Shown here: positions 24,001 to 30,000 of the stretch, one piece after another
Layout of the letters: each line of letters opens with the position of its first letter
Numbering within the stretch: the first letter of the stretch is position 1
DNA from: an uncultured bacterium
Lineage (GTDB): Bacteria > Zixibacteria > MSB-5A5 > UBA10806
Direction: 5' to 3'
Length of the DNA: 64,000 bases
NCBI GenBank assembly: GCA_965541585.1
Contig: CBEUCH010000016.1
Location: 1 to 64,000 of the forward strand
Made by a program: the position numbers

Positions 24001-27000
24001 GCCATCAACAATTTTGACGACATCAGAACCTGATCTCCGTCCAGATTCCTAACTCCCTGACATGGTGTTTGCGCTGCTGGATCTTATCATCGGAATCATT
24101 CCAGCGCGCCCTCACTCCGCCGGTGATGGCCCGCGAAAACTGGTAGCTCAATTTTGGTTCAATTGTAATGCTACTCCGATCGGAATCTACCGATTTCCTC
24201 CCGCTGGTGACCGATTCAGATTTCGTATTATTGATAGATACATCGAGAGACAAAGAAAGCTGGCTGTCGAATTTCACTCTTTTCAAGAACGGGAGTTTCA
24301 GTCCTTTGGGCGCCGAAAAACTATACGAGACACCTATTTTGATATTACTATCGGAGCCTTTCACCTCCCTGTCGGACTGACCCTCGCTCCTGAGGTTTTT
24401 TGAATGGCTGCTCGACTTATCATAACGGACGGTGCCTCTGATATTATTTGCGAAGGTGATAGTAAGCCCGAAAATGGGCGAATAGTTTTTCGCCGTATCC
24501 CGTTTATACACCTCGCCGGTGTCTTCCCGACCGTTCTCGTCGACCTTTTTCGAATACCCGAATTGGTAGCTAACCGTTCTGGCTATCGATTTAAACAGGG
24601 CGATATTCTCCAGGCCGGTTAAATTAGCGGTTATATCCGGGAAGGTTATGGTTTTCAGTTTGGTGGGATCGGTCGTGCCCCTGGTGACCTGTGTCCGCAG
24701 GCTGTAAGAGGTTCTTATATCCAGATTGCGAACAGGCTGCAGTCCACTTTCCAATCGATAGGTATCGGTGAGTACCGTATTATCGGTTCTGGCTAATCCA
24801 CTGGCGGCCTTGGTCTCCGCCCGGGGATGGTCCATCAAGCCAAACATATACAACCAGTGGGCTCTCTCTAAAAGCCCCTGTCGGGCCAATTTTTTATCTT
24901 TCTGATATGTGCCCCGAACGGGTTTCACCGACTTGAAAATCCTCAGAATTCCCCCGAGAACCCGTTTGGGAGTAACCCTCCCGGGCTCCGATTCCTCGTC
25001 GTATTCCTCGTCCTCATCCAGAAACTCATCACCGTTGGTATCTTTCTTTTTCTGCCTCTGAGGTTTTGACGATCTTCCGCCTCCCCCCGTGGAAAATAGC
25101 GAGGGAAGATTAAACGTTAGATCCGCCTTCAGTGAGCCCTGCATATCGGTGGTGCGGGTAGAATCGATATTGCGCTTGAGATCCGAGTTCTCGTTGTAAT
25201 TGGATGTGAAGGAAATCTTGTTATCAATTATTCTCAGTATGCGAGGCTGAAAACTAACATCGAACCTCTGCTGAAACCTCTGCTCGACCCCGAGTTTCAG
25301 TTTCGATGGGTTTATGCTAAGCTTGAAACGCCCCGGATCGGTCAGGTCTCGTGAGGCGGAAACGCCATAATTTGACTTCAAACTAGAGAGCAGACCAAGA
25401 CTCAGATTACTTGATAGCGAAAGATCTTTCGTTCGTGATTCCGTTAGAATCCCCCGTTGGTTCAGGTTTGTGGAGTTGTTCCCATTTAACTCGCTGGAGA
25501 AATCAAGTTTGGTCGGCAGATAGAAGAATTCGGAGTTATGCAACGATTTTGGCAAATACAGGTATTTCATCCAGGAAAACGGCCTGAATGATGGCTTCGA
25601 TCTTGGCGTAAGGTCGTATGTTGTTCTACCCTGGTACCTGATCTGCTCGCTCTCCGGCACGGCTGGCGATTTCCCCTGGGTTCTGGAGAAGGTATAATTG
25701 GATTTGATCCGGTTTAATGTCAAATTCCAGATCGGATTCTTGGTATTCCTGTTGAAACCTATGGATACCGTATGGCTTTTCTGCGTGCTTTCAGTTCTTT
25801 CAAATCTCCTGGCGTTACCTTGAAGTATTATATCCGAACCCGGCTGGAGGCGCGGAAGCGAAAGTGAATTCTGCCACGAGTATGAGAACGGCAGGCTCAT
25901 ACCAAGCGATGGCGGGAACAACCGTTCGACTTTCACCCCCAGACGCACTGATCGATTGGTCGTGGTCGCTCCCGACGACTGCTTCGCCGATAACGGGAAG
26001 AAATCGGCGCCGGTCTTCTGGTAAGAGAGGGTAACATCGGTAAAGTCTGCGAAATTAGCGGTCGCCTGCAACCGACCTGCGAAATCCGATTTCCTTCTAA
26101 CATCGGTCACCAGGAGTTCATCGAGCCAGACCTCGCCGGAATACAACTCTGTTTCGGTGGATGCGGTATCTATCTCCACTCCCACTATGAAATACTTCAC
26201 CTGCGCGAGCGACGGGTTACCGTGGATTCTGTAAGGCCCGTCGGTGGTATCGGCCACTGCCAGCGATTCGGGGGGCGTCCGTTTCTGAAGCTCGTATTTG
26301 AGTTCTGTCATGCGGATGAAATCGATATCAACCCAGTTATTCTCCGACCATCCGGGCTCGAGGACGGTGCGGTATTCGTAAAAATTGCTGCCGTCCTGGC
26401 TCATCCGGAAGAAGAATGAAACAAAGCCGTCGACAGACGGATCACCATGGACAAACATCTGAAGGCGCTGGTACAGGGTATAATCCTCGGGCTGATAGAG
26501 ACTCCAGTAAGCAGCCCCCAGGTGGCCGGGGGGCATATTCTGGTAGGATAAGACGAGCGATTGCTCTTTTTCCCTGACACCAGTTTCTCGATCAAGCTCG
26601 CCGGCGATTCCAGGAGGCGGATAGTAATTCAGATTCTCCTGAGTATTTTTTACAGTCACGTCGAATTTTTCCCCGGGTCGCAAATAATCCGTGGAATCCA
26701 TCTCGACCGGCACTTCCTGCCACTTGTTACCGACCAGCAGGAAGGAAGCCATCTGCAGGTGATAAGGCTCAGTTCCCCCGGAGAACCACAGGCGTGCATA
26801 ACTAAGTCTCGTAAAATCTGCGGAGCCCGTGTCGCCCCGAACGCTGTAAACCAGGGAGTCCTGCAACGGTATTCTCAGAAGCTGCCAGCCGGTGGATGTG
26901 GAATCGGCCCAGTACTCCGGATCATCTAAATCGATTATGTATTCGAAATAACCGTCTTGCCGATCTAATGATCCATTGTTATTGATATCCTCGGTGTCGA

Positions 27001-30000
27001 AACGGCCCAATCTGTCGGGATCGTTTCTGTTGTCCTCGGTACCGTTGATCTGAGAATAGTTATAAGGATCGTCGTTGCTGTAATGCCAGTCATCGCCTTG
27101 GGGATCGGGATTCGATACCGGGTCATAATCCGGTTCATTTTCACTGAACAGTCCATCCAGCCCGGTATCTTCATCCGGAAGCAGAACGCCATTCAGATCA
27201 GCATCCTCTAAATCGTATTGCCCGTCATCATCGAGGTCCTCGGAGATCAGACCGAGATTGATATGCAACAGGGGAGCCCCGGACTCGACGCTGATATCGG
27301 GATGATACCAGAACTCGATAAACTTCGTCAAGCTCTGATCGGCCATTCCGGAATAAACCGGTCTCATTATGCCCGCCCAGGAGGAATCCGGATATGCCGC
27401 CGTGCTGTCCGGGAAGAATTGCAGATTCAAGACGTCGTGCTGGTCATCCTGCGACCGCACATCCCGCTCGGGCCAGATTTCTTCTACCCTTACCCGATCA
27501 ATGGGGTTATACCACCACAGATCTGTTCTATAATCCAAATCGAGCTTTTCGCGCGATTCATCCAATGGGAGCGAGCAGGCAGTCCATACTCCCCGCCTGC
27601 TGCTCAAATCCGTATAATTCCTGGTGCCCTCGAAATCATCTATGAACGCCTGATTCTTGGTATTCGGGTTGGGAATGCTTTGCGCCACCTCGCCGGAAAT
27701 ATCCAGAGACGATAAGCCGTCCGCCTCCACAAGCGGGAGAACGTCGACTAAGGTGGTCATGAAATCCGGTTTGAACTTAAAGGAAAAATTGCCATCCCAT
27801 ACAAAAGCTTTCGTCGGTTCCCTTCCGACCCTTGGCCTGGGATCGGATGCGGTTTCAGATCTGTACATGGCGGCGAAGGAAGCGAATGAATTTTCGAACA
27901 GTTGATACCGGCTCGCCAGTCCGAACAGGGTTTTCTTTTCCGGCGAGAAGAATGGGGCGTAGTCGAAATCGACCGTGATGTTGGCTGCCGGATTGGTGGC
28001 CTCCTGTGAAAGAAAAGTTATTTGCCCGATGTCGTAATTGATATTATAATCGAGGCCGCGTCGGAGCACGGTGCCGTCCCCAAGCTTGACCACCTCTGAG
28101 CCCTCTATGACATTGGCCCTACCTAGAGAGTGGCTTGCCGCCCGCTGGGCAGTTTTGACATAGAGATAATACTCCGTCGAGTCCCGGGGGATCGGGTTTC
28201 CAGATGGGTTCTCGTAGATCTCGAGGACCTTTTCCTCTAAAGCCTCACTGGCGAACGGTGTCGGGTGCGGGAACACCAGATGCCCCCTGTGAGCATCAAT
28301 GACAGTGTTATCAAAATCGAACAGGCAATCCGAACCGGGTGCCCCGGTATTGTTATTTCGTTCATCCAGGCCGAGAAGCGTTACGAAACAATCGCCATTC
28401 TGATCCTCATAATCATTTATCAATCCCTGCAGGCCGCCGGCTCCTTTGAAAATCCTTAACTCAAAACCATCGATAGAAATATCCCGCGCTCCAAGATCAT
28501 AGACGTTACGCCACATTCGATCCCAGGAATCGAAGCTCACGACAGGTTGACGGTGTTTCAGTAGAATCAGGACCAGCGTCGTATCCTGTGTTATCGTGGT
28601 GTCGGGACGATAAGATAAATTCCCGATGGTGAGGGTGTCTACCGAGCCGCCATCATACCTTGCATATTTTATATAGGCTGCTAATACGTTTCCATCCCTT
28701 AACCTATTATTCAGAACTACACTCCAGATCTCTTCATAGACCTTGAAATCGTCTAGATCCATCGGTTTAAAGTGAATATATTCATATTCATTCCGCTGTT
28801 GTTGTTCAAGCGTGACATTCGGCAGGCTGTCCATTGGCCAGACACAGGCGAGGCCCTTGGGATCTTCCGTCTGCAACCCGTTGACATACAACTCAACGGA
28901 AATTAACGAATCGTTCGGACCGGGATCCCATAACTTGAAATATGTATTGGACAGATAATCATAATCCCTGATCTGCCGATCCGTCCCCTTGGCCCCGGCG
29001 ACGAAGCTGGCCTTCTCGTTGGAGCCCTTATCCTGGCTGGTGATCATGGTGATATCCAGGTTCCCTATCTTGGCCGTGGCCTTGATACCGAAAAGCCCCT
29101 GGATGTTCTCGGAGTAGCCTATGAACCGCGAATTGGGAAGCGACAACGTGGTGTTACCAGCCTCGACGGTCTGGATGATCTCGTCCTCTTCACCTGTATA
29201 CCGGAGCTTTATAGTGTTGCCCAGTTCGGTAAAGCGTTCCGAATCCTGATCCACTTCTACCGTGATTTTCGATCCGATGGTGCCGGTGACCTTAAAGCGC
29301 GATTTCTGTTCCATGTGGAGGGTGGGAAATTTCGATTGATTGAAGGTGCCGGTATTGACGAGGCCCTCCTCCCATTCCGAGCGGCCGGAGAAAGTAATGG
29401 ATCTCGATCCGGTAACCCTTATATTCGATTTTCCCTCGCCGATGATCCTACCGATGACCTTGGGAGGCTCCCATGGTATATCTATCTGTACGGCACCCTT
29501 CCCGCCGTCATCTTCAGACTTGCCAAGCTCTTTTCGCAATTCGTCTCGCCAGGTGTTTTTCAAGGCCATATCCGCCCGGTAGAGAACATAGTTCGGCAAT
29601 GCGAAGATACGGGTCGACGATAATTCATATTCACCGTAATAATCGCGGAGGGTTACATAATATGATCGGCCGGATGTAAAACTGATTTCCCGGCGGTATT
29701 TTGGATTGTTAAACTCAAAAAGATATGATGGAGCGTCTTTGTTCAGGCATTTCTTGCCGGCCGGGGGGCCTTCGGCTTCCCTGACAATAAAAAGGCTCTT
29801 GATTCTTAGCGGGATGTCGAATTCCCCGATCTCATCCGCAAGCGCCGGGGAGGCGATGAATAAAAGCAAGAGCGCAACGTTTATTTTGCTCGCAAAGGAC
29901 AACACAGATCCTTCAGGCCGCAACGGGCCATCTCCTAATTAATAATAATCTTTAGCGATATTCCTTTAAGCCTCCTTTGTATCTGGTCTCCAATCAGGGA

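Follow-up and report, generated by a model that had tools for sequence, protein, structure and literature searches.

A type IX secretion system with no detectable Gld motor, and a PorV carrier with a predicted wall-binding insert, across Zixibacteria

Zixibacteria encode a type IX secretion system (T9SS) that, judging from its genes, appears to consist of a minimal set of parts: a SprA pore, PorV carriers, a PorU sortase and cargo with type A C-terminal tails. Neither a GldK/L/M/N or PorG track nor PorD, PorP or Plug was detected. Our searches support the view that no Bacteroidota-type energy chain is detectable in the phylum. The insert in the PorV encoded beside porU is a lineage-specific part of this system. 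Our starting point was a window of 64,000 nucleotides (positions 1 to 64,000 of contig CBEUCH010000016.1, assembly GCA_965541585.1) from an uncultured member of the phylum, called G000 below. Gene counts for this genome come from our own gene calls (2854 genes).

Results

The sprA gene and its neighborhood

The sprA (sov) gene for the outer-membrane translocon lies at 24023..29902 on the minus strand and encodes 1959 amino acids from an ATG at 29902; the open reading frame spans 24023-29923 and would give 1966 amino acids with a TTG start. Its product scores 723.7 bits against TIGR04189 (cut-off 200), matches PF14349 and aligns collinearly to the SprA of F. johnsoniae (6h3i_A, E 2.4e-50), so the translocon claimed in the preliminary description is a true SprA. 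Parabacteroides Sov is about 510 amino acids longer, and the larger gaps fall in the C-terminal quarter. Across the phylum we found SprA in 201/201 genomes (197 over the TIGR04189 cut-off), a larger sample than the 121 genomes from which its universality had been claimed, and it is single-copy-like and universal over 19 families.

The gene is the last of a conserved run on the minus strand made up of recG (31814..33940, TIGR00643), a DUF1844 gene (31203..31589, PF08899), the housekeeping gene murB (29994..30920, TIGR00179) and sprA, and the seven other genomes read all have murB immediately ahead of sprA. An M28 peptidase (23109..24023, minus strand, PF04389) follows sprA directly, and the neighbor tables place it there in G072, G037, G021 and G020 as well. 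In 19 of 30 hand-picked genomes, sprA and porV are 34-71 kb apart.

Sortase, carriers and cargo

Apart from sprA, the genes of the machine are found on contigs different from that of the window. The porU and porV genes are adjacent (C11:27512-34170). PorU scores 687 bits against NF033707, over a cut-off of 420, and keeps the GHG and SC motifs, which we take to be the His-Cys dyad of the sortase. The neighboring PorV scores 240 bits against NF033709 (cut-off 90). With the stricter NF033710 it reaches only 178, under the cut-off of 250, because the insert splits PorV; a phylum search with that model at E 1e-30 was too strict for PorV and returned 4 of 101 genomes. Two further parts are assigned by motif only: a PorX candidate, a 519-aa receiver plus PglZ-type protein (C9:26793), and a Skp gene behind bamA. 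PorV-like sequences gave 20 matches in 16 genes of G000, 8 of these genes over the cut-off; four of the 16 come right after a gene with a tail, and one more comes after porU. The sortase, the PorX and the roughly 12 PorV/PorQ-family barrels, several behind their own cargo gene, had all been listed before, and our results agree with that list, PorX on its motif basis.

With our own tail profile, 177 of the 2854 genes (6.2%) bear type A tails, close to the 171 proteins (6%) counted previously, and the tail ends in Lys or Arg in 175 of them. All 150 cargo candidates that were scored, from 187 in total, passed the TIGR04183 cut-off. Within the window, three cargo genes (3..3452, plus strand) have type A tails over this cut-off at 318-569, 1770-2018 and 3195-3440. 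In a run of secreted genes (40265..59295, plus strand), type A tails were matched in eight genes, at 42131, 50474, 51386, 53213, 54125, 55946, 57767 and 59056. The genome therefore has the type A tails of a Bacteroidia-type T9SS. The earlier term "heavily used" reflects gene counts, and the small genome G037 has 21 tails in the 81% of it that was read.

Searches for motor, ring and coupling parts

None of the 201 Zixibacteria genomes had GldM (PF12081), GldL (PF22827) or GldN (PF19841) over cut-off. There were four weak matches to GldM and six weak, partial ones to GldL; we read four of these ten loci, and all four encode other proteins. The preliminary description had reported the same absence and conceded that its searches had no positive control. 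That control is now supplied, as each of the three proteins was found in 3/3 Bacteroidales genomes, and within a sample of 121 Bacteroidota genomes one set of 30 had both GldM and GldL.

For GldK/J, no FGE-fold match was found in G000 at E 1 while control genomes matched, in line with the earlier report of no FGE-sulfatase protein in this genome. Across the phylum, a search at the level of the fold, with no GldK-specific model, found an FGE-fold protein in 87 of 201 genomes and none in 114. Eighteen of the top 20 matches are short secreted FGE proteins, and the six of 420-445 aa that we read as possible GldK turned out to be EgtB-like.

PorG, PorD, PorP/SprF and Plug were each over cut-off in 0 of 3 Zixibacteria tested. 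The controls for PorD, PorP/SprF and Plug were recovered in 2/2 genomes and those for PorG in 1/2, the one missed being a motor-less genome. A two-seed search for SprE/PorW, with no SprE-specific model, turned up no large secreted TPR lipoprotein; for a 569-aa candidate, SprE was not among the best 60 of 95 PDB matches.

A filter for transmembrane (TM) pairs, validated on GldL/GldM controls (3/3 passing), gave 24 pairs in G000, none of them motor-like on inspection. Profiles built from the N-termini of three control GldL and GldM proteins were run against six-frame translations; the best E values were 2.6 (GldL) and 2.5 (GldM) for G000, and 0.77 and 0.6 for G037. An ESM Atlas query with the GldL N-terminus, GldL clusters skipped, gave no usable match and is uninformative. 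G000 has no motors of the MotA/ExbB type other than TolQR, two MotAB and ExbBDD-TonB, and all of these are encoded in the operons usual for them. The DUF5683 pair of the sortase operon was also considered as a motor pair and rejected: both proteins have signal-like N-termini and barrel-type C-termini, and no motor-like layout was seen.

It had been claimed that the T9SS here works without the Bacteroidota energy chain. With working controls no such chain is detectable, and this part stands; that the system works without one is a further step that we infer, and an unrelated or very divergent motor would also fit, as profiles built from Bacteroidia cannot detect a non-homologous one.

A PorV with a propeller and LysM-like insert

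The PorV linked to porU carries about 530-620 extra residues, a propeller plus three LysM-like modules between the hatch motif and barrel strand 1, in 101/101 genomes, and this long PorV is single-copy-like and universal over 17 families. Alignment to 6h3i_F showed a clean insertion, with 4 residues after NPA replaced. In a tree it is sister to Bacteroidota PorV (support 98/98) and apart from the PorV paralogues; it is orthologous to the canonical carrier PorV. The structure model has a 14-strand barrel and a mean pLDDT of 79.9, with low confidence for the hatch and linker (residues 16-67).

Pfam LysM (PF01476) is over cut-off in 6 of 24 orthologues and below it in 5 more; the other 13 have no match, nor does the PorV of G000. 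For module 3, a profile search retrieved solved LysM proteins (E 1.6e-7), and a fold comparison also matched such proteins, with an rmsd of 1.6 across 50 residues and a Z of 7.2, which is in the range that the tool calls common. Both the beta-alpha-alpha-beta fold and the PF01476 profile of LysM are thus found in the insert. Given the barrel topology, the module would hang in the periplasm, and its fold suggests that it may bind peptidoglycan and hold the carrier near SprA. In motor-less Bacteroidota, PorV has an ordinary length of 379-404 aa in 5/5 genomes, so the insert is not a general motor substitute.

Comparison with known systems

The T9SS of F. johnsoniae and P. gingivalis comprises SprA/Sov, PorV, PorU, GldKLMN/PorKLMN, PorG, SprE/PorW, PorD and Plug (PDB 6h3i, 8gl6). 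Zixibacteria share SprA, the PorV barrel, porU beside porV, the type A tails, a PorX-like regulator and a Skp gene. They differ in having no GldL, GldM or GldN (201 genomes), FGE fold (G000) or PorG, PorD, PorP and Plug (the three tested), and the SprA of the window is about 440-510 amino acids shorter. Unlike F. johnsoniae PorV, theirs has the large predicted periplasmic insert and does not have the long stretch at F. johnsoniae chain positions ~260-310.

In P. gingivalis, PorE pairs with PorP as a cell-wall tether. The available part of one paper describes TPR, propeller, carboxypeptidase-like and peptidoglycan-binding domains in PorE (PMC12204202). PorE-PorP and the Zixibacteria PorV are alike in placing a propeller and a peptidoglycan-binding fold, predicted in the latter, beneath a T9SS carrier barrel. 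In Zixibacteria, however, the module forms part of the PorV chain, and LysM-like units stand where PorE has a Pal/OmpA-type domain; the likeness seen is one of architecture. Going by database labels, Chitinispirillaceae (Fibrobacterota) have a PorV with a propeller, and Edwardsbacteria a long PorV. These proteins have 690-830 aa and a large insert, mostly of the Reg_prop propeller type, and none of the ten gave a LysM match. Of 15 proteins scanned, one gave a weak LysM match, and it is a closer, Zixibacteria-like form.

Among the 121 Bacteroidota genomes sampled, 96 have SprA, and 66 of these 96 have neither GldL nor GldM. A 2013 survey in J. Bacteriol. reportedly noted deep lineages that have sprA but lack gld genes. 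In the portion available of PMC11705866, PorV, SprA and Plug alone are given for Melioribacter and Ignavibacterium; SprA and PorV are common to those sets and ours, the other T9SS proteins searched for being absent, and Plug is where they part, as we did not find it in the three Zixibacteria tested. A motor-less T9SS is therefore not peculiar to Zixibacteria and is already in print for Melioribacter and Ignavibacterium, as the preliminary description had cautioned for Ignavibacteria. The same portion draws no mechanism from these sets, and motor-less sets go unmentioned in the parts available of PMC7323717, PMC5053529, PMC11205867, PMC5445135, PMC6851124 and PMC8542988.

Discussion

The reading that we favor, if tentatively, is that the Zixibacteria T9SS works as a ratchet that takes no power, at a carrier tethered to the wall. 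The predicted wall-binding module of PorV would keep the carrier close to SprA, and cargo tails would load onto PorV within SprA with no input of energy, as they do in F. johnsoniae. Carrier and cargo would then leave together through the lateral gate by thermal undocking, and cleavage of the tail by PorU would make this irreversible. The short PorV paralogues encoded right after their own cargo would stay with it as permanent anchors, much as in PorQ-PorZ, and the Gld track, which powers release, would have been added later. The sequence from loading through thermal undocking to cleavage is the step we hold least firmly. From what is available of PMC10994853, loading on PorV in F. johnsoniae needs no energy, the tail buries ~1,850 square angstroms and cargo is trapped once the motor is removed; unpowered release would therefore need a weaker grip. 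A wall-bound carrier would also fit a PorU-anchor role as well as a shuttle role.

An alternative that we think unlikely, but would keep in view, is that a proton motor, ExbB-ExbD-ExbD-TonB (or TolQRA), pulls the PorV module or the SprA N-terminus and so extracts the carrier-cargo pair. The operon (C5:29582-33082 in G000) is headed in G000 and G037 by genes for a TPR protein and for an orphan protein with four TM segments; the ExbD pair is present in 100/101 Zixibacteria, exbB-exbD-exbD-tonB is intact at 30/30 loci read, and cassettes of a TonB-dependent receptor, a tail-bearing gene and a PorV paralogue occur twice in G000 and once in G037. A TonB/TolA-type force on the T9SS lipoprotein PorE has also been suggested in the part available of PMC12204202. 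However, TonB-dependent receptors occur in 101/101 genomes, so that the universality of TonB does not discriminate and the operon is already explained. It is unlinked to sprA or porU-porV in G000 and appears in none of six sprA-porV regions read, and by eye no conserved stretch like a TonB box is found at the N-terminus of PorV or SprA.

We consider it rather improbable that a dedicated motor is present and too divergent or unrelated to be seen. Carrier release needs force in Bacteroidia, and G226, a SprA-bearing Bacteroidota genome with no GldM, has a near-full-length GldL_N match just below cut-off (23.1 vs 24 bits). In Zixibacteria, on the other hand, the control-tested TM-pair filter (G000), the N-terminus profiles (G000 and G037) and the weak phylum matches that were read all failed to yield such a motor, and neither the track nor its coupling protein PorG was found.

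Still less probable, in our judgment, is that the motor was ancestral and lost several times, or that SprA-PorV-PorU spread sideways, leaving Zixibacteria with a reduced relic that perhaps secretes inefficiently. A gliding origin has been inferred for the T9SS (PMC12635249, 2025), and SprA trees are at odds with 16S trees (PMC11705866), in each case going by the part of the paper available. Against this reading stand the single-copy-like, universal SprA and long PorV, the intact catalytic motifs of PorU, the number of cargo tails in G000 and the confinement of GldL and GldM to 30 of 121 Bacteroidota genomes, compared with 96 for SprA.

Very improbable, finally, is an ATP-driven force across the inner membrane from a MoxR ATPase and BatA-E partners. 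Their genes (MoxR, DUF58 and Bat-like, names we assigned from sequence) come right after the sortase operon in G000, in the same orientation; in G040, G001, G099 and G072 they fall in the interval from porV to sprA, two genes with the recurrent spacing given above, and in G037 porU and the Bat region are outside the 81% read. That stretch also holds plain housekeeping genes such as recG and murB, however, so its gene order may have been inherited. In G021 and G020 no such block was seen next to porV, and Bat operons are also present in bacteria with no T9SS.

In current models, as far as the available parts of three papers go, extraction of the carrier from SprA is the energy-requiring step and the T9SS derives from the gliding machinery (PMC10994853, PMC12635249, PMC12365241). 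The preliminary description set its finding against such an origin. The view it challenged is indeed in print, and the distribution of the genes favors the core first; core before motor is, however, an order read from distribution and not from a rooted tree. As far as gene content goes, our results argue for a T9SS core that would be older than the gliding motor, and suggest that the Zixibacteria set is an older, simpler form of the machine. It is possible, though we hold this with considerable doubt, that motor-less SprA-PorV-PorU is the ancestral and most widespread T9SS of the FCB group, exporting folded proteins without a moving track, that Zixibacteria stabilize it with a wall-tied carrier, and that one branch of the Bacteroidota later added the Gld motor to it. 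Gliding would then have grown out of secretion and not the reverse.

The PorV insert offers a concrete handle for structural work. A phylum with the pore, the carrier, the sortase and many cargo genes, and no track, would mean that release either can proceed without power or draws on some other energizer, and both possibilities could be tested in a cultured motor-less FCB species.

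SprA and the outer-membrane components

The open reading frame at 24023–29923 on the reverse strand encodes SprA, scoring 723.7 bits with TIGR04189 (cut-off 200), and it is collinear with the F. johnsoniae SprA. Relatives share the recG-DUF1844-murB-sprA run of which the gene is the last member. A phylum profile search found SprA in 201/201 Zixibacteria genomes (197 above cut-off), which bears out the preliminary description of a true, phylum-wide translocon. Its report of PorU, a PorV family and many cargo tails also held in this 98% complete genome: PorU scored 687 bits (cut-off 420), 16 genes are PorV-like (8 above cut-off), and the tail profile picked out 177 of the 2854 called genes as having a C-terminal tail. 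When tail candidates were scored with TIGR04183, 150 of 187 received a score and all 150 were above cut-off. Four PorV-like genes lie directly behind a tail-bearing gene and a fifth behind porU. PorX stands as a PorX-like protein, assigned on motif alone.

A conserved sortase operon on contig C11 (C11:27512–45830) runs from porU through a long porV, an M6/FG-GAP cargo gene, two DUF5683 genes and an NHL lipoprotein gene onward, and its remainder comprises the genes for a barrel-like protein of 1091 aa and for an Omp85 protein, and a UbiA-like gene; the operon of another Zixibacteria genome (G072) has no barrel-Omp85 pair. The DUF5683 paralogues (C11:37498–39091), kept in 5–6 relatives, each begin with a signal-like stretch, contain a hydrophobic hairpin and, like barrel proteins, end in Phe. 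At C8:142566–158220 there are, in turn, a TPR lipoprotein, a Big_5 lipoprotein, a 1981-aa cargo, a PorV paralogue extended by TPR at its C-terminus and anti-sigma/phosphatase-like genes, an order mostly kept in a second relative (G037). The window also has an array of secreted ~300-aa paralogues at 42389–59295, some of them T9SS-tailed.

Absence of motor, ring and coupling proteins

Because SprA was found in 0/14 of the initial control genomes by profile search, we added Bacteroidales genomes as controls. The GldM, GldL and GldN models each matched 3/3 of these, supplying the positive control that had been missing, and had no match in the genome under study or in a single-contig relative (G084). 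None of the three was above cut-off in any of 201 Zixibacteria genomes; GldM had 4 weak matches, GldL 6 weak partial ones and GldN none. We inspected four of these ten weak loci as possible motor genes, and all four were other proteins. Control Gld proteins, and small profiles built from them, also had no match in the genome. We found no FGE-fold protein there, and therefore it has neither GldK nor GldJ. The earlier claim that GldK/L/M/N are missing from the phylum thus stands for GldL, GldM and GldN at cut-off and, for GldK, in this genome. The FGE fold is absent in 114/201 Zixibacteria and present in 87/201. Among the proteins with this fold that we inspected, six are EgtB-like, and 18 of the top 20 matches are short secreted FGE proteins. 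Searches of this genome, G037 and G084 brought up no Plug, PorD, PorP/SprF or PorG (0/3 each), with positive controls. A two-seed search for SprE/PorW showed no large secreted TPR lipoprotein, and SprE was not among the best 60 of 95 PDB matches of one 569-aa candidate.

The long PorV

The porU-linked PorV has 859 aa. Its alignment to F. johnsoniae PorV matches through the NPA motif and resumes at strand 1, with ~530 residues standing where F. johnsoniae PorV has four. The insert measures 529–621 aa in 25 orthologues, and a profile search found the long PorV in 101/101 genomes, nearly always as a single full-length match. In a barrel tree it is sister to Bacteroidota PorV (support 98/98), apart from six paralogues.

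The structure model has a 14-strand barrel and a confidently predicted insert; the best fold matches of the insert are PorV and sensor propellers, and three helical modules sit within the modelled propeller. For module 3, both a profile comparison and a fold comparison find solved LysM proteins, the latter at a middling Z of 7.2. Of 24 orthologues, 6 exceed the Pfam cut-off for LysM, 5 match it weakly and 13, ours among them, have no match. An outer-membrane barrel with an even number of strands starts from the periplasm, which should also be where the insert lies. Chitinispirillaceae also have a propeller-bearing PorV and Edwardsbacteria a long form, both without a LysM match. PorV is short in 5/5 motor-less Bacteroidota genomes, and the insert is therefore not a general replacement for the motor. 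In five other Zixibacteria genomes (G003, G009, G018, G044, G075) the frame has ~1050–1070 aa, with two matches to the initial part of the insert, which suggests an internal duplication.

How cargo might be released

The available part of PMC10994853 describes F. johnsoniae cargo loading on PorV inside SprA as energy-free and extraction as motor-dependent, and the parts available of PMC12635249 and PMC12365241 propose that the carrier is pushed out by PorG, which is joined by a bond to GldK/PorK of the moving track. Zixibacteria have no track and no PorG (0/3 genomes). We tentatively favor an unpowered ratchet, at somewhat below even chances. The carrier-cargo pair would undock from SprA thermally, PorU cleavage would make undocking irreversible, and the LysM module would retain the carrier close to the pore. 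The tight binding in F. johnsoniae counts against such a ratchet.

Four motors of the MotA/ExbB type are encoded in the genome: TolQR lies in a tol-pal operon, one MotAB is flagellar, a second MotAB stands alone, and the fourth is ExbB-ExbD-ExbD-TonB. The last is in 100/101 Zixibacteria and intact at 30/30 loci examined, but this near-universality is paralleled by TonB-dependent receptors (101/101), and we consider pulling by TonB or Tol unlikely, at perhaps one chance in four. At the head of the exbB-exbD-exbD-tonB operon (C5:33159–35548), here and in G037, are genes for a secreted TPR protein of 561 aa and for a four-TM protein of 235 aa, the latter without a Pfam or NCBIfam match. Cassettes of a TonB-dependent receptor, a tail-bearing protein, a PorV paralogue and a lipoprotein lie at C7:154177–163391 and C11:111763–120368, the latter conserved in G037; the tail-bearing protein is possibly a lid at the cell surface that a carrier of its own holds in place. 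Flagellar genes with MotAB and the second, lone MotAB pair are at C3:12625–21042 and C7:31364–33100, and MotAB had no match within the 81% of G037 examined.

A hidden motor is a little less probable still. A gene-pair filter passed by 3/3 GldL/GldM controls left 24 pairs in the genome, none motor-like by inspection. Comparison with G037 (81% of a small genome) gave 342 shared envelope candidates, and by eye we saw no new motor pair among those inspected. The motor-family, gene-pair and G037 comparisons identified no dedicated energiser in this genome. It is improbable that the Zixibacteria set is a reduced relic; this concerns history more than mechanism, so its likelihood overlaps with those of the ratchet and its rivals. 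Bat-MoxR as energiser is very improbable; the MoxR-Bat-like block behind the sortase operon in this genome and four relatives is surrounded by housekeeping genes.

Distribution and origin

We sampled 121 genomes, of unstated completeness, spread across Bacteroidota. SprA was present in 96, and GldM and GldL in the same 30, all SprA-positive, so 66/96 SprA-bearing genomes had no motor. The regular spacing of the sampled genomes leads us to infer that these 30 belong to Bacteroidia and the others to different classes. One SprA-positive, GldM-negative genome (G226) has a near-full-length GldL_N match at C186:13380–13583 (reverse strand; 23.1 bits, just below cut-off) within a 249-aa frame, a possible divergent GldL.

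PMC4793230 found a complete T9SS in Bacteroidetes only. According to the available part of PMC11705866, the T9SS proteins of Melioribacter and Ignavibacterium are PorV, SprA and Plug, with no others; the accessible parts of PMC11285876 and PMC5837995 allow T9SS in further FCB phyla and do not name Zixibacteria. A full-text search, with most subscription journals outside its coverage, returned no paper joining "type IX secretion" with "Zixibacteria", and further searches of like coverage showed, among the papers they listed, no mention of Zixibacteria or, in a separate one, of LysM, and no title or opening of an abstract on motor-less systems.

The Zixibacteria set is homologous to the outer-membrane half of T9SS and, judging from sequence, appears to work like it; it differs from the Bacteroidia type in having no motor, ring or coupling features. 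The preliminary description took this as contradicting an origin of T9SS from the gliding machinery. The motor-less state is not special to Zixibacteria, and that argument holds in a narrower form: the distribution tentatively favors a T9SS core that predates the gliding motor, contrary to the order of gliding machinery before core inferred in the available part of PMC12635249.
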